Shown here piece after piece: positions 3,128 through 47,980 of a stretch of DNA of 64,000 nucleotides. The stretch is from an uncultured Candidatus Saccharibacteria bacterium (GTDB lineage Bacteria; Patescibacteriota; Saccharimonadia; Saccharimonadales; Saccharimonadaceae): NCBI GenBank assembly GCA_963515485.1, contig CAUPWD010000004.1:9716-73715 (forward strand), given 5' to 3'. Position 1 is the stretch's first letter; the number at the start of each line of letters is the position of its first letter. Below the pieces are notes generated by a model. It was not told the DNA's origin. It searched no databases and saw nothing but the letters and a program-made list of their open reading frames with translations. Position numbers and translations under genes: made by a program.

Positions 3128-6100
3128 GTGAGTAAAAATAGTACCATTCCAGATGGCAATCGTGTCTTTTTCACCGAAGGAGACAAATTGCCTATCCCTG
3201 ATCTTACTGCACATCAGAAAGATTCATGGGAAGAATTTGTACGTTCGGGTCTACGCGAAGTTTTCACCGAACTCAATCCAATTGATGACTATACTGGTCA
3301 GAAATTGTCACTAAAGTTTAAAGATTATGAATTTAAGGCTCCAAAACACACCATTCAGGAAGCCAAATATAATCTTGAAACCTACGAAGCTCCTTTGCAC
3401 GTCAAAGCTGAACTTCAAAACAAAGTCACCGGCGAAGTCGTCGAACAGGAAATTTACTTCGGTAATTATCCATGGATGACTGACCGTGCCACCTTCATCA
3501 TTAATGGTACTGAGCGTGTAATCGTTTCTCAGTTGATTCGTTCAGCTGGTGTCTTTTTCACTGCCGAAACCATTGGCATGAAGCGCTATTACGGTGCTAA
3601 GGTGATTCCAGGTCGTGGTGCATGGCTTGAATTCGAGACTGCGCCAAATGGTTGTATCTACGTGAAGATCGACCGCCGTCGTAAAATCCCAGTTACCACC
3701 CTTCTTCGCGCTCTTGGCGTTGTGAAGGATGCTGATATTAAGGCGAAATTCGAAAATGTCGACACTGGTGCGATTAATTACATCGATTCTACTATCGATA
3801 AGGATACTACCAGCTCTCAAGCTGCTGCCCTTCTCGAAGTTTATCGTCGTCTCCGCCCAGGTGACTTGGCTACCGTCGAAAACGCTCGTTCCATGGTCGA
3901 ACGCACTTTCTTCGACTACAAGCGTTATGACTACTCTCGTGTCGGTCGTTTCAAGATTAACCAACGCCTTGGTTTCGACACCCCTAACGACAGTACTCAC
4001 CGTACTTTGCAAATGGATGATCTCGTGGCGATTATCGCCGAAATCATTCGCTTGAATAATACTCAAGAACCAGCTGATGATATCGATTCACTCTCTAACC
4101 GCCGTGTACGCATGGTTGGTGAACTCGTTCAACGTCAATTCCGCCTTGGTATGCTTCGTTTGCAACGTAATATCTTAGACCGTATGTCTATGGTTGACGC
4201 TAAAGAAAAAGTTACTCCATCTCAGCTTCTTAACCCACGTCCAGTGGTCGCTGCAGTTCGTGAATTTTTCAGTACCTCTCAGCTTTCTCAGCTAATGGAT
4301 TCTTACAACCCATTCGGCGAGCTTGCCCACAAGCGTCGTCTATCATCTATGGGTCCTGGTGGTCTCACTCGTGAACGCGCCGGTTTCGATGTGCGTGATA
4401 CTCACCCTACCCACTACGGTCGCATCTGTACTGTAGAAACCCCAGAAGGTGGTAACGTGGGTCTCGTTTTGAACCTCGCTACCTATGCTCGTATTAACGA
4501 ATATGGCTTCATTGAAGCTCCATATGTCGTCGTAAAAAACGGTAAAGTCACCGACGAAGTTATCTATGTCGACGCTAGTGTCGAACGTGATATGGTGATC
4601 GCTGATACCTCTGTAAAATTGAACGCCAAAGGCGAATTTGAAGACGAATGGGTTTCCGCTCGTGTGAATGGTCAGCCAGTTCAGGTAGAATCTGCTAAGG
4701 TTACCCACGTCGATGCCGCACATAAGGAAATTCTCGGTATTTCTGCCGCTCTGATTCCATTCGTGGAAAAGAACCGTGTTGACCGTGCACTCATGGGTTG
4801 TGCCATGCAGAAACAGGCTGTGCCTCTTCTCCGCAATCAAGCTCCAACTGTTGGTACCGGTATTGAAAACGATATTGCTCGTGCCACTTCTCAGTTGATC
4901 GTTGCCGAAGGTGATGGTGTAGTTGAAAAGGCTGACGGTCAATCCGTCATCGTCAAATACGCTGACAAAACTTCTAAGGAATACTTTGTTGAGCATTTCG
5001 AACAAACCAACTCTGATCAATGTTACAACCAACGCTGTGTGGCGGTTCGTGGTCAAAAAGTTAAAGCTGGCGACACTCTTATCGAAGGCGCTTCTCTTGA
5101 AAATAATGAACTCGCTCTCGGCCGCAACCTTCTCGTTGCCTTCATGCCATGGCGTGGTTACAACATGGATGACGCTATCGTGATTTCTCGCAAGCTTGTC
5201 GAAGATGATACTTTGACCTCTATCAATATTAAAGATTTCGACGTAGAAGTTCGTGAAACCAAACTTGGTCCAGAACAGGTTACTCGTGATATCCCTAACG
5301 TTTCCGAGCACGCTCTTCGCCACCTCGGTGAAGACGGTATCGTGACTGTAGGTTCCGAAGTCAAAAACGGCGACATTCTCGTCGGTAAAATCACCCCTAA
5401 GGGTGAACAAGAACTCAGTTCCGAAGAGCGCCTTCTTCGCGCTATCTTCGGTGAAAAAGCCAAAGATGTCCGTGATACTTCCGTTCGTATGAGTGGTGGT
5501 ACTTCCGGTAAAGTTATCGGCGTCCGCATTTACACTCGTGAACAAGGTCATGAACTTAAGGCTGGCGTTCTCATGCAGATCAAAATCTACGTTGCTGAAA
5601 TGCGCAAGATCCAGGTCGGTGATAAGATGGCCGGTCGTTACGGTAACAAGGGTGTAGTTTCCCGCGTACTTAACGTCGAAGATATGCCATTCATGGCTGA
5701 TGGTACCCCAATCGATGTCCTACTTTCTCCAATGGGTGTGCCTTCTCGTATGAATCTCGGTCAGCTTTATGAAATCCACATCGGTATGGCTGCTCGTATT
5801 CTTGGTTACAAGGTTGCCACCCCATCCTTTAACGGTATCCCTGATGAAGTTATTTCAAAGGAGCTTGAAAAGGCTGGTATTGATAGCAATGGTCGTACCC
5901 AACTTTATGATGGTCTCACCGGTGAACCATTCCACGAGAAGACCGCAGTTGGTGTGATGCACATGATTAAGCTTCACCACATGGTCGAAGACAAGATTCA
6001 CGCTCGTTCGACTGGTCCTTACACTATGGTTACCCAACAACCTCTCGGTGGTAAGGCTCAAAACGGTGGTCAGCGTTTCGGAGAAATGGAAGTTTGGGCT

Positions 6101-41571: not shown

Positions 41572-42994
41572 AAATCTTATATATAATATAATCTACCAGG
41601 TATTGTTATATATTATTCCATTTATATTAACTCCATATCTTTCTCGCACTCTTGGTGTAACACAGATTGGTGAATATTCTTATACATATTCAATCGTTTA
41701 TTATTTTATGCTATTCACTCTTTTAGGAATAAACAACTATGGCGTAAGAAAAATATCAAAGACAAAACGCAAAAAAGACATACTAGGAGAAACATTCTCT
41801 TCTATATATGGCCTACAATTATTTCTTGGCCTAATTTCGTTAATTGTATATAACTTAGTATCAGTCGTCTTTTTAAGTACTCACTATACTATATTATTAA
41901 TACATAATTTATTTCTAATTTCCGCAATAGTTGACATTAACTGGTTTTTCTTTGGTATCGAAAAATTTAACATCACAGTTACTAGAAACGCAGTAATTAA
42001 AATAATATCGACACTTCTAATCTTTGTGTTGGTAAAAAATCCAGATTCTATCCTGACCTATACCATGATTATGGCCGGAAGTACGTTACTGAGTCAATTA
42101 TACTTAGTTGCCATACTGCATAAATATATAGTTTTTCGTCCTCTAAATATTTTTAAATCGATAAAGCTTCACTTTATAAAATGCCTAGTATTATTCATTC
42201 CAGTTATTGCTTACAGTGTTTATCGAGTTATGGACAAAACAATGATTGGTGGTATTGTTTCTACTACTGAGCTTGGATATTATGAGAATGCTGAGAAGAT
42301 AATTAATATCCCAATTGGAATTCTCACGGCAATCGGAACGGTTATGCTCCCGTTTATATCTAAGCAAACTGAAAAAAATCAGTCAACTATGAATGATAAA
42401 AAAAATGGCGTTCTATACAGGATGTTTCAGGTATGTTTTATGATCATGTTTCCGATGGCGTTTATATTGTTTGCAATAGCAAAAGATTTTACTTCTATAT
42501 ATTTTGGTCCTGGTTTTGAAAAAAGTGGTGATATTCTTATGTTACTCTCCTCCACAATTATTTTCGCCACAGTTGCTAATGTAATCCGGACAAACTATCT
42601 AATTCCTAATGAGAAAGATAGAATCTATGTTTCCTCGACGATTGTAGGAGCAGTTGTGAATTTGATTCTAAATCTAATCTTTATAAAAAGCTTTGGGGCA
42701 ATTGGTGCTTGTATTGGGACAATTGCCGCAGAGGCTTCAGTAATGTTTTACCAAATTATCGCCACTAAAGATAACATTAATTATAAAAAAGTTTTTCTAT
42801 CAATTTTTGCGCTAATAATTAAATGCGTAGTGACCACATCGATTTGTATAGTATCAGTAAGTTTGCTTAAAGCTCAAGGGATTCTTAAAATTATCCTCGA
42901 ACTGAGCCTATTTGCTGCTCTGTATCTATTGATTAATATTAAACTGTTGAAAAAAATAATAAACAGAGGAGAAGATAATATTTGGGAGATATGA
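41555..42994 (+). CDS. Wzx-type polysaccharide flippase (MOP superfamily)
   Basis: 479 aa with about 12-14 TM segments. N-terminal NIIYQVLLYIIPFILTPYLSRTLG is typical of polysaccharide biosynthesis (PST) proteins. Confidence 0.75.
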   Translation: MKNLSKNLIYNIIYQVLLYIIPFILTPYLSRTLGVTQIGEYSYTYSIVYYFMLFTLLGINNYGVRKISKTKRKKDILGETFSSIYGLQLFLGLISLIVYNLVSVVFLSTHYTILLIHNLFLISAIVDINWFFFGIEKFNITVTRNAVIKIISTLLIFVLVKNPDSILTYTMIMAGSTLLSQLYLVAILHKYIVFRPLNIFKSIKLHFIKCLVLFIPVIAYSVYRVMDKTMIGGIVSTTELGYYENAEKIINIPIGILTAIGTVMLPFISKQTEKNQSTMNDKKNGVLYRMFQVCFMIMFPMAFILFAIAKDFTSIYFGPGFEKSGDILMLLSSTIIFATVANVIRTNYLIPNEKDRIYVSSTIVGAVVNLILNLIFIKSFGAIGACIGTIAAEASVMFYQIIATKDNINYKKVFLSIFALIIKCVVTTSICIVSVSLLKAQGILKIILELSLFAALYLLINIKLLKKIINRGEDNIWEI

Positions 42995-44223
42995 AAATGC
43001 CAGGAGACAGTTTAATAAGAAAAAAATACGATTCAATAGACTGTATAGAAGATTTAATCCCACTAATCTCGGATTTAGATGATGGCGAGACTCCATGGCT
43101 TGAATTTAAGGCTATAAACAATCAAGAATGTAAAAAAGAGAAAGATTTTCTATTACACCAAAAATCACTTTTAGCAAAAGAAATTTGTGCTTTTTTAAAT
43201 ACATCAGATGGAATTGTTGTATGGGGAGTTGACTATTCTGTGTCTGACGGAATTAAAATCCGTAATGATTACAATGGAAACTTATATGAGGTACTAGATT
43301 CATGTATCCAAACAATAGTTGAACCAGCTCCTTCTGGAATCGATTTTAAAAGCATAGAAAAAAATAATAAAAAAGCTTTGTTGATTTTTGTACCAAAAAG
43401 TAATATGATGCCGCATCGCGTCTGGGGTGGTGCAGATAGTCAAATTAAACGCAACTATTACGTAAAATCTGGTACAAATAGTGTTGCAATAAACGAAAGC
43501 ATAGTCCGATTATTATACCGTTCCGATGGCTACGTTCCACGAATTTCAACTTTTATAGAACCTAAGTTTATATCTAGTAATCTTATGTGTCTGGAGATAT
43601 TAGCCAACCCTGATAGTATATATTATATTGATAAATACTATACCAAAGGAGAGGTAATTTTATTAGATAAAAATGGTGATCCCATATTAACTGAGTTAGA
43701 TACAAATGCATGGATTGAGATAGAGAAAAATAAACTAGTACCTACAATTGCAATATATCCATCTAATAGTCCTATCCAGCTTTATAATATGAGCGTAGAG
43801 CCAATTGACCTTTCTAATACCGGATATTTTACTCAGGGTCCGAAAAATATACGTGGATTTGTAGCTGATAATGTTCTGAATATAGAAAGGGAAGGCTTCA
43901 ATAATGTAAAATTCATTGTAACAAGGTCCTATTTTGCATGTAATAAGGTGTCAATTACTATTGATAAAAGACTTTACATTCTAAATACTTTTTCACATAT
44001 AGGATATTTAGTTGATAATGGCAGAAGCAACCTTTGCTTTGTAAGAAAAGAAATTTTTAGAAAAATAGAAAGTGACTATAATATAAAAATTTATGTTTTA
44101 AATACGTATGTTGATAATAACATTGTAAATGATTATGATTATAATGGTATAGACCCATGTAATAATGGGAAGATAAGTGTTAGCTTCATAAAATATATAC
44201 TCAATAATATTAAAGATCTATAG
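42982..44223 (+). CDS. AlbA_2 (Schlafen-type) domain protein with unknown ~280-aa C-terminal region
   Basis: ETPWLEFKAIN...ICAFLNTSDGIVVWGVD matches my recollection of the ES..LEFK / AFANT.GG...GV pattern. The start overlaps the wzx stop by 13 nt. Confidence 0.5.
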   Translation: MGDMKMPGDSLIRKKYDSIDCIEDLIPLISDLDDGETPWLEFKAINNQECKKEKDFLLHQKSLLAKEICAFLNTSDGIVVWGVDYSVSDGIKIRNDYNGNLYEVLDSCIQTIVEPAPSGIDFKSIEKNNKKALLIFVPKSNMMPHRVWGGADSQIKRNYYVKSGTNSVAINESIVRLLYRSDGYVPRISTFIEPKFISSNLMCLEILANPDSIYYIDKYYTKGEVILLDKNGDPILTELDTNAWIEIEKNKLVPTIAIYPSNSPIQLYNMSVEPIDLSNTGYFTQGPKNIRGFVADNVLNIEREGFNNVKFIVTRSYFACNKVSITIDKRLYILNTFSHIGYLVDNGRSNLCFVRKEIFRKIESDYNIKIYVLNTYVDNNIVNDYDYNGIDPCNNGKISVSFIKYILNNIKDL

Positions 44224-44244
44224 AAGTAGATAGAGTTTTTGCTG

Positions 44245-44265
44245 TACCCACAGGGGTATATTTTT
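44245..44265 (+). terminator. Intrinsic terminator
   Basis: TACCC-loop-GGGTA stem plus T5. Confidence 0.6.
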
Positions 44266-44418
44266 CTACATTTTATCAAAAGCCAAAAATTAGGTTAAAC
44301 TGGAACCACGAAATCCCAAAAAATGAAATCATTATGAATAAATAAAAAAACACTTCAACCTACAGGAATAGGAATTGTTTTTGTCTATCCAAAAAACTAC
44401 TCTCACGTATAGGTATTA

Positions 44419-45642
44419 TTATTTAGTAAGTCCGTTTAACTTTTCTGAAAAACATTGAATACCAAGAGTATTAATTACAGAAATATTCGCATTGGTCTTC
44501 GTTAGGTTATTGTTTTTTAATAATTTATTTACATTCTTCTCTAATTCTGTATCAAGAACATTTAATTTATTTTGTTCAATAGTAACAAATGAATACGCAC
44601 TACACCACCCCGATATTTTCTCTGAAATTTTAGTTACTGCTTCAAAAAAAGAAATTTTCTTTCTTTTATTTTGTCTTATTAATTCTGTTATGCTTTCTGT
44701 TATATTTCTATAAGACTCATCAGCAATATATACTTTGTCGCTCCGAAACATTATTCCTAAAAAAGTTTTATCTTGTAAAGGACCGATAACCGAGTGCTTT
44801 TCTTTAGTTTTTGAATTACCAAGTTTGTATAGTTTTAAACCTATTCCCGAAAGAAAATTGTTTGCATCATCGAAGGCCTGCCTTGCTTTATTTTCATCCG
44901 CAGTTAAAATGATAATATCATCAGCATAACGAACCATCATATAATCCTTCGATTCCATAAAAGCATCAAAGTCGGAAAGATAAATATTTGAAAAAAGAGG
45001 AGATAATACATCCCCTTGCGCTATACCATTAACATTATCAGGTGTATATTCTTTTTTTACTTTATTTTTATAATCTAATTTAGATGATGCATCAATGTCA
45101 TTAAAAATGATTTCACGAATCAATTCATTAATCGAGCAGTCTGGAAGAGGTTTTAGAACTTTTTCTAATAAATCTTGCTTATTTATATTATTAAAAAAAT
45201 GAATAATATCCGTCTTACAACAATATCTATGGCCATCTCTTCTATATTTCTGCACAGTCTTTATTGCCTTCTCAACACCACCACTAGGCATAAAAGCAAA
45301 ACTTACGTTATTATTTATATTATACATTTGATTAAAGGTCTTTACGGTCGCATTAAAAATGGACCTCTGAACGATCCTATCTTGAATGGATGAAATCTTA
45401 ATCTCTCTAAAGTCGCCTTTATTCTTAGGTATAAGATGCAATCGAAGTTTACCAAAGTGATAACTACCAGACTTTAGTTTTGCCTGAATAGTCTTTAGAT
45501 GTTCGCTTAAATTAACTTCAAAATTTTTTATTGTTACTCCGTCAGATCCATACGAATACGGATTCTTTTTTATCTCTAGCCAGGCTTTCTTAAGCGATCT
45601 CAGATTACTGATACGATTAATTAATAATGTTTTCTTACTCAT
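44419..45642 (-). CDS. Reverse transcriptase (RNA-directed DNA polymerase), stand-alone, 407 aa
   Basis: RT motifs are LIPKNKGDFREIKISSIQDRIVQRS (1/2), GIAQGDVLSPLFSNIYL (4), VRYADDIIIL (5, YADD) and LKLYKL...FLGIMF (6/7). I see no endonuclease or other fused domain. Confidence 0.85.
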   Translation of the reverse strand: MSKKTLLINRISNLRSLKKAWLEIKKNPYSYGSDGVTIKNFEVNLSEHLKTIQAKLKSGSYHFGKLRLHLIPKNKGDFREIKISSIQDRIVQRSIFNATVKTFNQMYNINNNVSFAFMPSGGVEKAIKTVQKYRRDGHRYCCKTDIIHFFNNINKQDLLEKVLKPLPDCSINELIREIIFNDIDASSKLDYKNKVKKEYTPDNVNGIAQGDVLSPLFSNIYLSDFDAFMESKDYMMVRYADDIIILTADENKARQAFDDANNFLSGIGLKLYKLGNSKTKEKHSVIGPLQDKTFLGIMFRSDKVYIADESYRNITESITELIRQNKRKKISFFEAVTKISEKISGWCSAYSFVTIEQNKLNVLDTELEKNVNKLLKNNNLTKTNANISVINTLGIQCFSEKLNGLTK

Positions 45643-45713
45643 GATAAAAATTCTTTCTGTTTGACCCTCAAGCTAGAAAAAACGTTTTTCTAGGCACCAT
45701 CAAAAGAAGGGGG

Positions 45714-45805
45714 ATATACTACAATCAGAGTTGATCGTGATTTTGAGGTAGTTACCGAGCACTAGAATTGCGACCAGCAACATAATCACATGCATCATTC
45801 TGATT
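45714..45805 (-). repeat. Direct repeat A (92 nt, RT-proximal)
   Basis: 89/92 identical to 46050-46141, offset by exactly 336 nt. Confidence 0.9.
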
Positions 45806-45870
45806 GTTTGACAACGTCGATTACTGATAGTTCCAGTAAATAATTGTCTATTTAAGATTCTACTAATAGC

Positions 45871-45899
45871 ATTATATATATTATATCTAATACTTACAA
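45871..45899 (-). promoter_or_regulatory. Sigma70-like promoter inside the inter-repeat spacer (TTGTAA-17-TATAAT)
   Basis: Minus-strand TTGTAA at 45899-45894, a 17-nt spacer, and TATAAT at 45876-45871. It reads toward repeat A and the RT. Confidence 0.5.
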
Positions 45900-46049
45900 T
45901 AAAATCAACAACTATCTTGGACTTTTTTCGTCCATTGTCCACTTGTGCAAACTTCTCTAACACATCTTCCTCTCTTTTAAATTTAGTATTAGTTGTCCCT
46001 TGAGGCTCAATTATTAATTGATGGATACAAACAACTCTTGCAGAGTAGA

Positions 46050-46141
46050 ATATACTACAATCAGACTTGATCGTGATTTTGAGGTAGTTACCGAGCGCTA
46101 GAATTGCGACCTGCAACATAATCACATGCATCATTCTGATT
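46050..46141 (-). repeat. Direct repeat B (92 nt, RT-distal)
   Basis: 89/92 identical to 45714-45805. Mismatches are at 3 positions. Confidence 0.9.
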
Positions 46142-46160
46142 ACGTTTACACAATGTTTTT

Positions 46161-46195
46161 TTGTTAAGTAAAATTTTCGAAATTTTACTTAACAA
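46161..46195. repeat. 35-nt near-perfect palindrome
   Basis: TTGTTAAGTAAAAT-t-TTCGAA-ATTTTACTTAACAA. It lies immediately downstream of a minus-strand TGaTAAAAT box (46197-46205). Confidence 0.8.
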
Positions 46196-46504
46196 AATTT
46201 TATCACATTTTTGAAAAGCTACATTATTATTTTTATTAAAAATCAGACCTCATTAGTTAACTTTTGTAAGAATTCTTATACCCTACACCACCACCTCAAA
46301 CTCCGCCCCACGCCTCTCACTACTTCGAAGCACAATCTTATGCCTCTGTCTTTCTGTCAAATTCTTCGCAATCGCCAACCCAACCAATGACCCGTCTTGT
46401 CTTCCGTCCTCGTCCTCGCCGCGTCTATTTGATAAAATCTCTCAAGAAAATCCGCTTCTAGTCTTCTTTCTCCACTCTCACTCTAAAAGATGTATAATTG
46501 ACCT

Positions 46505-47980
46505 ATGAAACAAGAAAAACCCGTTAAAAAATCGAGACCACTTTTGTTCTTTTTCCAGCTTCTCGCTGCATTATCCAGCCTCACCATGCTCTATTTTTTG
46601 TATCAAGCTCAAATTCTGCCGATTCAACTTTTTGGCCTTATCGCTATCTTATATCTTCTCCTAGTCGCCTTTTTGATCATCATTAATCGAAAAATTATCT
46701 TACTCGTCATCCTTCTTGTTCTAGATGTTGTTCTCAATATTGCACTCACTTTTGTATTTTATAAATATAACGGCTATTTTTCTCAGTTTAGCAAAAATGA
46801 AACCTACTTCGAAAAATATAGTCTTGTCACGCTGAAAGATAACGACCTTTCGAAATCCAACTCAAAAAACATTGCCCCACTAGGAATCTTAACTAGTGAC
46901 CCTTATTTCGAGACCGTCAAGCAATATCTCGCCACCACAGAAGGTAACCATCCGGACCTCCTAAAAACCCCTCTCGAGGAAACTAATATCAAAACCTACG
47001 ACAATCTCCTCACCCTCACTACCGCACTTATCACGCCTAAAACCGCGAGCGACAAACTCCAAACTATCTTCCTCGGCCATACTTATCTCGACACTCTAAA
47101 AGACAATAACGAATCTATCTATAACCAACTCCAAATTCTCGCCGACGTCGAAATTAAAGTCGCCCCTAAGCACGTTGAGACTACCTCTCACACTTCACTC
47201 GATACGCCTTTCACCATTTATCTTAGCGGCATCGATAATCGTGACCACACCCTACCTTTTGCCGCCCGCTCCGACGTTAATCTCATCATGGTAGTCAATC
47301 CCGCCAAGCACAAAATTCTCCTCCTTAATACTCCTCGTGATTTTTATGTCCCCCTCGCCATGAACGGCAAGCTCGATAAACTCACTCACGCCGGCCTTTA
47401 TGGCGTCAATGAATCAATTCATACTCTCGAGAATTTTTACGGCATTAAATTCAATTACTATGCCCGTATCAATTTTGATGCCACCTCCGCCATCATCGAT
47501 CAACTCGGCGGTGTCGACGTTCATATTCCATATGTCGTCAATACTTATCACGGTCACCGTCATTACGAGCCAGGGAATTATCATTTGAACGGCGATGAAG
47601 CACTCGATTTTGCTCGTGAACGCGTCTCGATTAGTTGGGCCGGAGGTGATCGTGAACGTGGACGCAATCAGGAAAAAATTATCACCGCTCTGCTCCAGAA
47701 ACTTCAGCAAGACAAAACCAACCTCACTAAGTTAGATCAAATTTTCAATTCTATCGCCAAAAACATTCAAACCAACTTCACTCCCGACGACCTAAAATAT
47801 CTTGTCCAAAAACAGCTCAGCATTTTTTCCAATTGGCAAATCGAATCTATCGACGTCGATGGTAAAGCCGATATCACCTCCACCTATACTTATCCAGAAC
47901 CAAAGCATTTCGTTTGGCATCCATATCAAGATTCCGTCGATAAAGCCAAAGCCAAGCTCCAAGAATATCTCAACCAATAA
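46505..47980 (+). CDS. LytR-CpsA-Psr (LCP) family protein
   Basis: N-terminal TM segments plus the LCP core (SGIDNRD...ARSDVNLIMVVNPAKHKILLLNTPRDFYV...GRNQEKII). Confidence 0.8.
   Translation: MKQEKPVKKSRPLLFFFQLLAALSSLTMLYFLYQAQILPIQLFGLIAILYLLLVAFLIIINRKIILLVILLVLDVVLNIALTFVFYKYNGYFSQFSKNETYFEKYSLVTLKDNDLSKSNSKNIAPLGILTSDPYFETVKQYLATTEGNHPDLLKTPLEETNIKTYDNLLTLTTALITPKTASDKLQTIFLGHTYLDTLKDNNESIYNQLQILADVEIKVAPKHVETTSHTSLDTPFTIYLSGIDNRDHTLPFAARSDVNLIMVVNPAKHKILLLNTPRDFYVPLAMNGKLDKLTHAGLYGVNESIHTLENFYGIKFNYYARINFDATSAIIDQLGGVDVHIPYVVNTYHGHRHYEPGNYHLNGDEALDFARERVSISWAGGDRERGRNQEKIITALLQKLQQDKTNLTKLDQIFNSIAKNIQTNFTPDDLKYLVQKQLSIFSNWQIESIDVDGKADITSTYTYPEPKHFVWHPYQDSVDKAKAKLQEYLNQ

Follow-up and report, generated by a model that had tools for sequence, protein, structure and literature searches.

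The window, a stretch of 64,000 nt from contig CAUPWD010000004.1 of an uncultured Candidatus Saccharibacteria bacterium, encodes on its minus strand a reverse transcriptase (RT) of 407 amino acids (aa) with the catalytic motif YADD. Immediately upstream, on the same strand, lies a leader region with two 92-nt direct repeats, R1 and R2, which are identical at 89 of 92 positions (97%) and have a start-to-start period of 336 nt (Table 1). The RT start codon is 71 nt downstream of R2, and one reading frame stays open across R1, the spacer and R2. This locus is apparently a member of a conserved and undescribed module, which also includes a structured, terminally redundant leader RNA and an embedded open reading frame (ORF); the product of the ORF is predicted from its sequence to be small and mostly hydrophobic. 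No description of such an architecture, an RT behind a repeat-bearing leader with an embedded ORF, was found in the literature searched, the coverage of which was limited.

A preliminary description of this stretch had noted the RT, the repeat pair with its 336-nt offset and the 144-aa ORF across both repeats and the spacer, all of which were recovered on recomputation. It had also guessed at a genome like those of the candidate phyla radiation, and the host is indeed Candidatus Nanosynbacter, one of the oral Saccharibacteria. At the 5' edge of the leader, the promoter-like element TGATAAAAT is where it had been placed, but the adjoining palindrome is 39 nt long (18 + 3 + 18) and not 35. The statement that no conventional gene precedes the RT went too far: gene callers predict an ORF of 137–165 aa in homologous contigs, and in the window a ribosome-binding site (RBS), GAGAGGA, with GTG at 45963 opens an ORF of 87 aa. 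For the 144-aa ORF we found no homologues outside Nanosynbacter and no match in Pfam, PHROGs or PADLOC.

Table 1. Coordinates of the RT gene and the elements of its leader within the window
Feature	Position	Strand	Basis
P1, extended –10 promoter-like element TGATAAAAT for the long leader transcript	46197..46205	–	sequence and promoter scan
Perfect 18-bp hairpin with 3-nt loop, predicted transcript 5' end	46159..46197	–	inverted repeat 100% complementary; 4 compensatory pairs, 7 loci
R1, upstream 92-nt repeat copy (repeat B of the preliminary description)	46050..46141	–	evolves in concert with R2
S1, 5' strand of helix Ha (UUGAGCCUCAAG), 40 nt after R1	45999..46010	–	RNAalifold, single-sequence minimum-free-energy fold
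RBS GAGAGGA and in-frame GTG (45963–45961) of the 87-aa ORF; 5' strand of helix Hb	45961..45980	–	
Two overlapping sigma-70-like promoters in the spacer (TTGATT-17-TATAAT, TTGTAA-17-TATAAT), 71–80 nt upstream of R2	45871..45908	–	
R2, RT-proximal repeat (repeat A of the preliminary description), encodes the hydrophobic C-terminal helix of the ORF	45714..45805	–	
End of R2, C5 tract and U-rich stretch (UAUAUCCCCCUUCUUUUGA); 3' strand of helix Hb (anti-RBS); ORF stop at 45700–45702	45700..45718	–	
Local tail hairpin (CCUAGAAAAACGUUUUUUCUAGC)	45672..45694	–	six pairs, 100% paired, one pair with a one-sided change
S2, 3' strand of helix Ha (CUUGAGGGUCAA), 42 nt after R2, 19 nt before the RT start codon	45661..45672	–	
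Long open frame, 144 aa, from ATG in R1 through spacer and R2; no RBS at its start	45700..46134	–	
Short ORF, 87 aa, good RBS; soluble N-terminal part and R2-encoded C-terminal hydrophobic helix	45700..45963	–	
RT, 407 aa, YADD, group II intron-like (G2L) clade	44419..45642	–	

Close homologues of the locus (75–100% RT identity) all come from Nanosynbacter and occupy the same site in a polysaccharide gene cluster. Contigs with the locus derive from oral metagenomes, among them the samples ERZ28635489, ERZ28638090 and ERZ28636579. Beyond Nanosynbacter, RT identity falls to ∼35% and lower; these distant relatives are from soil and other metagenomes and from two finished plasmids of cultured Acinetobacter (A. 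seifertii NZ_CP059551.1, our locus L178 at ∼49.9–51.8 kb, and A. pittii NZ_CP027659.1). Six lineages, with RTs ∼28–35% identical, share one layout: a promoter, R1 (92–130 nt), a lineage-specific spacer, R2, a short tail and the RT gene. Repeat length, identity and period are 92 nt, 89/92 (in the window) and 336 nt in Nanosynbacter; 121–130 nt, 97–98% and 273 nt in L013, L014 and L098 (the L098 copy is cut by the contig end, with 55 nt at 100%); 119 nt, 96% and 369 nt in L018; 116 nt, 96% and 480 nt in L020; 116 and 128 nt, 100% and 95%, and 389 nt in L016 and L062; and 126 nt, 97% and 399 nt in the Acinetobacter plasmids. In all clade members with two repeats, the pair ends 54–96 nt short of the RT start, and none of the group II intron loci of the same scan has a repeat pair at that position. 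The preliminary description had proposed that the repeat pair, a period divisible by three (3n) and the open frame be looked for in homologous loci. The outcome is largely in favour of its reading: the repeat pair is conserved at RT identities down to ∼28%, and the 3n period and the stop-free frame in five of the six lineages (periods of 336, 273, 369, 480 and 399 nt), the exception being that of L016 and L062.

Other searches delimit the family. Among plasmids, the Acinetobacter loci alone belong to it, an Acetobacter RT being without the repeat; among IMG/VR viral contigs there was no member closer than 30% identity, and the matches were all group II or retron-like. More distant members include P0030 from Mucilaginibacter. 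Contigs as long as 790 kb carry the two-repeat architecture too. Three loci (L092, L093 and L096) have one repeat and no spacer, and L096 encodes an RT identical to that of the two-repeat locus L098; the one repeat of L096 has the look of an R1/R2 recombinant or of a collapse in assembly. Short-read contigs often start ∼100 nt before the RT, and those of L007, L012, L099 and L100 start 96–111 nt before it, inside or at R2. Such breaks, together with the contrast between L096 and L098, make the repeat copy number in metagenome assemblies unreliable here. Downstream of the RT at another related locus, L017, lie 87-nt direct repeats (4309–4395 and 5181–5267) that are 85% identical and 872 nt apart.

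Within a locus, R1 and R2 are 95–100% identical in all six lineages, and the sequences diverge between lineages. At most Nanosynbacter loci the copies differ at 0–3 positions (∼8 in L101). Between the window and L008 about one-fifth of repeat bases differ, and lineage-specific changes are present in both copies. Identity within loci, divergence between loci and these shared changes together show that R1 and R2 evolve in concert. We also inspected ∼58 of 89 clustered Nanosynbacter ORF protein variants, drawn from a few hundred contigs. Many substitutions occur in both repeat-encoded segments (P0055, P0070, P0096, P0097 and P0105), others in one copy only. The three R1/R2 differences of the window, which are fixed across several independent assemblies, give Q, A and K in R1 and L, V and N in R2; strains 99% identical to the window have mosaic tracts, with Q, V and N in R1 of P0054, L, V and K in R2 of P0073, and Q, A and K in both copies of P0062. 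In L016, R2 is 100% identical to R1 though outside the frame of the upstream ORF, which argues that repeat identity is not a by-product of protein constraint. R1/R2 identity itself appears to be under selection.

Pooled over loci, the mismatches are not adenine-specific, with A in R2 at 14 of 44 (those of the window are A/T, C/T and G/C). At L018 (2418–2536 versus 2787–2905) the RT-proximal copy has A at each of the five mismatches (G/A, G/A, T/A, G/A and G/A). This is the signature of a diversity-generating retroelement (DGR), at this one locus only; three of the five are adjacent, so a single event may lie behind them.

RNAalifold, run on seven Nanosynbacter leaders, yielded five elements: a 5' hairpin, a hairpin in each repeat, the helices Ha and Hb, and a tail hairpin. 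Ha is a long-range helix between S1 and S2. The complementarity of CCUCAAG and CUUGAGG pointed out in the preliminary description falls within it (11 bp, 45999–46010 with 45661–45672), and both RNAalifold and single-sequence folds recover it. In Hb, the RBS and start region pairs with the end of R2 and the C/U-rich tail. Across the 5' hairpin, Ha, Hb and the tail hairpin, 98.5% of cells are paired and 8 pairs have changed on both sides. None of 500 shuffles attains this level of covariation, and sliding the partners by 1–3 columns makes the signal collapse. Compensatory pairs number four in the 5' hairpin, two in Ha and one in Hb (98% of its cells paired). The repeat fold proposed earlier, a hairpin closed by AAUCAGA/UCUGAUU, is predicted as well; its changes are invariant or one-sided, and the covariation check speaks neither for nor against it.

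Single-sequence folds recover helices between spacer and tail in the window, L013 and L016. In the other lineages the best complementarity between sequences after R1 and after R2 occurs at about the same offsets, in unrelated sequences: CTCTCTGT and ACAGAGAG in L013, CTCTCCGT and ACGGAGAG in L014, GTATGACAGAC and GTCTGTCATAC in L016, GTATGACAGAA and TTCTGTCATAC in L062, GCAACATGC and GCATGTTGT in L018, GTGTGATGCGC and GCGCATCACGC in L020, and CCCTAGG and CCTAGGG in Acinetobacter (the sequence after R1 given first in each case). The S1:S2 helix encloses almost exactly one repeat period. The conserved helices, their compensatory changes and the recurring position of S1:S2 indicate that the leader region is a structured RNA. 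Masking of the RBS is less uniform. Compared with shuffles, pairing of the RBS region with the sequence just after R2 came out nominally better in the window (13/500), Acinetobacter (22/500), L020 (29/500) and L013 (35/500), and no better in L008, L014, L018 and L098.

Promoter matches place the start of this RNA at or near R1. In the soil loci L013, L014, L018 and L020, an extended –10 or a –35/–10 match lies 5–15 nt before R1, which puts the predicted transcription start no more than a few bases from the first base of R1; L013, L014 and L020 have a further –10 that overlaps the beginning of R2. In Nanosynbacter, P1 is followed by the 5' hairpin, and R1 begins ∼50 nt downstream of the predicted start. 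P1 is kept as TG(A/C)TA(A/G/C)AAT in all Nanosynbacter loci examined, as is a TTGxxx-17-TATAAT promoter 71–80 nt before R2. In the window the latter is the TTGTAA-17-TATAAT promoter of the preliminary description (45871–45899), to which the overlapping TTGATT-17-TATAAT (45880–45908) can be added. A scan for a terminator after R2 in the window found none. Elsewhere in the window, many long ORFs have a TATAAT box 7–10 nt before their ATG, beside genes with a clear GGAGG-type RBS, which on sequence grounds suggests that leaderless mRNAs are frequent in this Nanosynbacter genome.

In each of the six lineages examined, one frame of the RT strand stays open from R1 across the spacer (in L016, up to a stop at the last codon of the spacer). 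That such a frame is improbable by chance, as had been claimed, is borne out in the window. When the 244-nt spacer was scored in the single open frame of the repeat, 0.04% of dinucleotide shuffles stayed open (P = 0.0004); the corresponding values are 0.0004 for L018, 0.003 for L020 and ∼0.1 for L013/L014. In the 336-nt unit of the window, all three antisense frames contain 6–20 stops. In the Acinetobacter plasmid one of six frames is open, for 175 codons, and RefSeq annotates no gene in the 728 nt before the RT of L178, where the repeats and the open frame lie. The open frame continues 27–89 codons upstream of the sole good RBS and start, and there is no credible start near R1 in L020, L013 or the Acinetobacter plasmid. 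The ratio of nonsynonymous to synonymous polymorphism (pN/pS) in R1 is 0.41 in the open frame and 0.81 and 1.55 in the control frames; between the end of R1 and the internal start it is 0.31, versus 0.85 and 1.14. For the RT gene, pN/pS is 0.24.

Translation from the spacer start would give a small protein with a C-terminal part that R2 encodes. The RBS and in-frame start are GAGAGGAAGAT-GTG in the window, with ATG in other Nanosynbacter lineages, AGGAAGGAG and ATG in L018, AAGGAGAGGAG and ATG in L020, GGGGAGGAAAC and ATG in L098, GGAGG and GTG in L013, and GGAGAGGA and TTG in Acinetobacter; in L177 a gene caller used this internal start. The repeat-encoded segment is a hydrophobic helix in Nanosynbacter, L013/L014, L018 and the single-repeat loci, whereas in Acinetobacter the repeat itself is not hydrophobic and such segments are in the spacer. 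A stop codon follows R2 after 4–10 codons in the window, L013 and L014, and after 19–27 in L018, L020 and the Acinetobacter plasmid. The upstream ORFs of the window and of the five other lineages have no Pfam or PADLOC match, and their homologues are confined to their own lineages.

Homopolymers after R2 vary among strains (C4–C6 at 45706–45713, T5–T7 in the tail hairpin at 45676–45688; L002, ∼3931–3990). This tract variation alters the C-terminus of the ORF, giving SPFF*, SPLLLMVPRKTFFLA* or a 165-aa form with a stop overlapping the RT start, and could be slipped-strand variation of the coupling between ORF and RT. As to the origin of the spacer, a tandem duplication of the tail and the RT 5' end was considered and rejected: the only match is non-colinear, 26 nt long and 73% identical. 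This similarity joins 45603–45628 (RT codons 5–13) and 45819–45844 (the 3' end of the spacer), both of which read ..ISN.R.., and may be due to chance.

The RT itself has RVT_1 as its only Pfam match (3.6e-22). Its best NCBIfam model is the group II RT/maturase (TIGR04416), matched over the full model length at 193 bits against a cutoff of 300, whereas the Drt2, Drt3a, Drt4 and retron models give 28–65 bits. The nearest solved structures are the G2L4 RT (2e-30) and the GsI-IIC RT (7e-29). PADLOC ranks generic RT (214 bits) above UG17 (149 bits, 4e-44) and RT-Cas1 (136 bits); this order holds for every family RT tested, with UG17 at 125–149 bits. The motif ...GIAQG..LSPL.. is as in group II RTs, and in a neighbour-joining tree the repeat-family RTs form a clade of their own, beside and apart from true intron RTs. 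Rfam models, those of intron domains included, matched neither window positions 43000–47500 (E ≤ 1) nor eight related loci (E ≤ 0.1), and the GIIM domain (PF08388), which was found in the true intron RTs of the same search, was not found in the clade. Since group II models and structures score best and no intron RNA matches, the RT is, by its sequence, a free-standing G2L enzyme and not a DRT2. The preliminary description had drawn an analogy with DRT2-type (UG2) enzymes; the RT lies in the group II intron-like clade, which has no described cognate-RNA mechanism. UG17 (DRT10), the former G2L3 and historically a group II-like RT group (PMC8632793), is on sequence a near relative worth naming; its SLATT partner is absent.

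Several known classes could be dismissed. A canonical group II intron is ruled out by the lack of ribozyme domains in Rfam, the lack of GIIM and a TIGR04416 score of 193 against 300; DRT2 by its model scores (53 bits in PADLOC, 50.7 in NCBIfam against a cutoff of 390) and by strand and promoter logic; a retron by an St85 score of 65 bits against 235 and no Rfam msr/msd match; and a DGR by the mismatch spectrum and an RT whose best matches are group II/G2L. A known ribozyme in the repeats, as in a retrozyme-like circular RNA, gave no Rfam match even at relaxed thresholds; a novel ribozyme could still be there.

Homology-guided strand transfer between direct terminal repeats is established for retroviruses, long terminal repeat (LTR) elements and pararetroviruses, and is to our knowledge the sole known use of direct terminal repeats beside an RT. 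The best explanation for the module, one that we hold tentatively and consider plausible rather than probable, is that its leader is a terminally redundant template on which such transfer yields multimeric cDNA. A long transcript would begin at or just before R1, and the RT would copy it towards its 5' end. The nascent cDNA, carrying the complement of R1, would then re-anneal to the identical R2, as in the first jump of retroviruses, and another round would follow. The product would be a multimeric or circularisable cDNA of the unit of repeat plus spacer (336 nt in the window). Because the stop codon and the RBS-masking sequence both sit in the tail after R2 (only the first 5 nt of the element at 45700–45718 are inside the repeat unit), this cDNA would contain neither. 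Transcripts of a double-stranded product might then give an unlocked, stop-less protein with a repeating hydrophobic helix; in the 389-nt lineage, the product would encode many copies of a finite protein instead. The S1:S2 helix may position the RNA, or may act as a snap-back primer if the RNA ends after S2.

We favour this reading because the repeats are kept identical in six lineages, R1 lies at the predicted 5' end in the four soil loci and a helix closes the unit, and also because the unit is 3n and stop-free, the frame extends upstream of the start, the stop and the mask lie outside the unit and a promoter lies inside it. From these features we infer strand transfer between R1 and R2; how synthesis would be primed and a second strand made, whether the product would be expressed and whether the module acts in phage defence are matters of speculation. 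There are precedents for single steps. DRT2 makes concatemeric cDNA with a 3n stop-free ORF by RNA-primed synthesis (PMC12039810), and the G2L4 RT is reported to carry out snap-back synthesis from short annealed 3' ends (PMC11761039). The fuller scheme, in which a domesticated G2L clade with an R-U-R RNA builds cDNA by repeated run-off and transfer and so removes both stop and lock from the ORF, is possible but, taken whole, doubtful.

A number of observations weigh against strand transfer. R2 is not at the 3' end of the RNA, as the RT ORF follows it on the same strand. The genome already holds the embedded ORF whole and in sense orientation, with a good RBS and start of its own inside the spacer, so that much of the coding signal can be put down to an ordinary gene; its stop overlaps the RT start as ATGA in the L002-type and Acinetobacter loci, an arrangement of translational coupling. 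After the internal start there is no coding signature, pN/pS being 0.67 in the open frame and 0.57 and 0.59 in the control frames. The 389-nt period of L016 and L062 is not 3n, the frame of L016 ends at a single stop 5 nt before R2, in the last codon, and L062 has several stops in its spacer frame. L062 keeps 112 nt of 100% repeat identity despite a truncated RT (its frame, 1748–2332, ends at 194 aa), and homogenisation therefore need not depend on the RT. L017 and L019, diverged from each other and apparently functional, have a single repeat each, along with a conserved hydrophobic peptide and, ahead of the RT, a local helix of 10 bp; thus, the RT can persist without R1. Lastly, three-repeat or circularly permuted forms were absent from the protein variants inspected.

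The closest precedent, DRT2, was also the analogy drawn in the preliminary description, and it holds in part. In both systems RNA that serves as template (putatively so here) lies directly upstream of the RT on the same strand, the unit is 3n and stop-free across the junction (in five of the six lineages), and a helix joins the two ends of the unit, with self-priming from the RNA 3' end conceivable. RT class, strand and promoter logic do not agree. The RT belongs to another lineage, with Drt2 models at 51–53 bits, and the 389-nt period with its stops is a further departure; that description had itself named findings of both kinds as counting against the analogy, and each is seen in part. The unit here is 273–480 nt, versus 111–129 nt in DRT2, and the homology available for jumping is 92–130 nt, versus ACA trinucleotides (PMC12039810). 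The ORF is sense and complete in the genome, whereas the DRT2 neo ORF is antisense to the non-coding RNA (ncRNA), and the window's promoter is contiguous in the spacer, whereas that of DRT2 is rebuilt across the repeat junction (PMC12039810). The unit of the window family leaves out a stop and an RBS-masking sequence. Concatemeric cDNA has been demonstrated for DRT2; the window family is known from sequence alone.

DRT10 combines an ncRNA (∼137 nt, with a short A-B-A' template), a SLATT membrane protein and an RT that makes 7-nt tandem-repeat cDNA. UG17 is the second-best PADLOC model for every family RT tested, but generic RT, the group II RT model and the G2L4 structure all outscore it, and UG17 has YVDD where the window RT has YADD. 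No SLATT domain was detected with Pfam or PADLOC in the upstream ORFs of the window and the five lineages, and nothing in the DRT10 descriptions compared corresponds to the long direct repeats or to the 3n open unit. G2L RTs provide the closest solved structures, and the RT resembles them in its full-length group II RT/maturase match and the lack of intron RNA. The G2L4 RT, with the motif YIDD, works in double-strand-break repair and has no RNA dedicated to it, whereas the window RT has YADD, a conserved RNA and an ORF partner. No repeat-bearing leader or embedded ORF was described for G2L RTs in the literature searched.

In retroviruses, LTR elements and pararetroviruses, a direct repeat at the RNA 5' end recurs downstream; R1 would take that place in the four soil loci by their predicted starts and lies ∼50 nt inside the predicted transcript in the window. 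The ∼90–130 nt of the window family are in the size range of retroviral R and of hepadnaviral terminal redundancy. Unlike theirs, R2 is internal, and the RT gene, being downstream, is outside the copied unit; the element is not mobile, lacks integrase and capsid genes and has a bacterial RT of G2L type. With hok-like type I toxin–antitoxin systems the module shares a small hydrophobic ORF and an RBS and start paired with sequence just past the ORF's own stop. It differs in that no antisense RNA gene is evident, the partner is an RT and the coding 3' end is duplicated at the transcript 5' end. DGRs likewise have two near-identical ∼100-nt repeats beside an RT, one of them the 3' end of a small ORF with a hairpin after it, but here the mismatches are not adenine-specific, the RT is not of the DGR clade and the repeats are kept identical, not diversified. 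The S1:S2 helix (7–11 bp) resembles retron a1/a2 in size and placement; there was no Rfam retron match.

The main rival of the strand-transfer reading is an ordinary operon, a reading that we think rather unlikely yet take seriously. Here the leader would be the mRNA for a small membrane protein, an effector or toxin partner of the RT, with one hydrophobic helix if translated from the internal start and two from the start in R1; the long-range helices would be a lock like that of type I toxins, R1 and R2 an internal coding repeat kept alike by RecA-type gene conversion, and the RT would ignore them. Much about the ORF suits this. Most lineages have a strong RBS and start in the spacer, the RBS is sequestered by pairing, gene callers recognise the ORF, and at some loci its stop overlaps the RT start. 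The repeat encodes a hydrophobic helix flanked by basic residues, with conservative substitutions, and single-repeat loci retain a hydrophobic peptide just before the RT. Systems of an RT and a membrane effector are known, such as DRT10 with its SLATT protein, and in L062 repeat identity has outlasted the RT. The repeats as nucleic acid are harder to accommodate. Protein function needs no nucleotide identity, yet 95–100% was kept while the RTs fell to ∼28% and the spacers became unalignable; moreover, identical repeats 150–360 nt apart are prone to deletion, so that selection on the protein should favour their divergence. In L016, R2 matches R1 out of the ORF frame, and in L020, L013 and the Acinetobacter plasmid the upstream frame stays open without a credible initiation site. 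In that plasmid the repeat is not hydrophobic, and the ORFs match no protein family.

An improbable alternative is that cDNA of a single repeat, made by run-off from a primer near the S1:S2 helix and without multimers, acts on the second copy. It could recombine into the other copy, as a DGR-like but non-mutagenic copy correction, or it could serve as an antisense 'antitoxin' on the repeat of the other transcript, blocking or destroying the toxin mRNA until infection disturbs the cDNA supply. The geometry is that of a DGR, with a repeat pair, one copy at the 3' end of a small ORF, an adjacent RT and a hairpin after the copy, and both the mosaic conversion tracts among near-identical strains and the L018 mismatches would fit. 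Single-repeat loci could still produce such cDNA, and in DRT10 cDNA has been proposed to neutralise the membrane effector (PMC12632851). Against this, the pooled mismatches show no adenine specificity, the RT motif is group II-like and the RT falls outside the DGR clade, and gene calls at the fetched loci showed nothing Avd-like, although no search was aimed at Avd; neither variant explains the 3n period or the frame open from R1 into the spacer. That the repeats have nothing to do with the RT, being a recombination-prone 1.3-copy tandem repeat in a variable membrane protein gene that is its neighbour by chance, or an assembly artefact, we consider extremely improbable. Short-read assemblers do break or collapse at the repeat, and L096 and L098 differ in repeat number with identical RTs. 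But the architecture is present in the two finished plasmids of cultured Acinetobacter and in contigs of up to 790 kb, the three fixed R1/R2 differences recur in several independent assemblies of the window's lineage, and the association extends across six RT lineages and is absent from group II intron controls. The intron controls and the finished plasmids already largely refute it.

The genes around the module are of defence and mobile types. In the window, a gene for a 413-aa Schlafen/AlbA_2 protein (42982–44223, plus strand) is convergent to the RT, and it is kept in most Nanosynbacter loci. In L008 a caspase-like Peptidase_C14 gene replaces it, in L100 a YobI-type ATPase is nearby, and L006 and L008 have a two-component system inserted on the opposite side. 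The surrounding polysaccharide cluster has a Wzx flippase, LytR-CpsA-Psr, VanZ and Wzz/tyrosine kinase. The exchange of neighbouring genes indicates that the module sits at a variable, defence-like hot spot inside the polysaccharide gene cluster. L093 is flanked by a PLD nuclease and conjugation genes. L092 (1457–1527 and flanks) lies beside a tRNA gene, two serine recombinases and a terminase-like gene, and is probably inside an integrated element or prophage. In L178 the gene directly downstream of the RT on the same strand (3252–3983) matches the AbiEi antitoxin (PADLOC, 2e-28). These flanking genes fit a role in defence or addiction, without proving one.

The occurrence of the module in cultured Acinetobacter, such as A. 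seifertii E-022166 and A. pittii Ap-W20, makes it directly testable. Even if the ordinary operon is the true reading, the module would be new, joining an RT, a small membrane protein and a locked mRNA with unusually clean concerted evolution. If strand transfer is true, the building of genes by RTs would not be peculiar to DRT2/UG2 and would have arisen again in a group II intron-like lineage, as a second route, evolved independently, by which reverse transcription 'writes' an open-ended gene that is toxic. Strand transfer over long homology would be seen in bacteria for the first time, by means of long terminal redundancy, so far a hallmark of eukaryotic retroviruses, LTR elements and pararetroviruses. 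It would also provide a natural system that copies a cargo of several hundred nucleotides between programmable homology arms, and would give the free-standing G2L RTs, mostly without known function, a cognate RNA.

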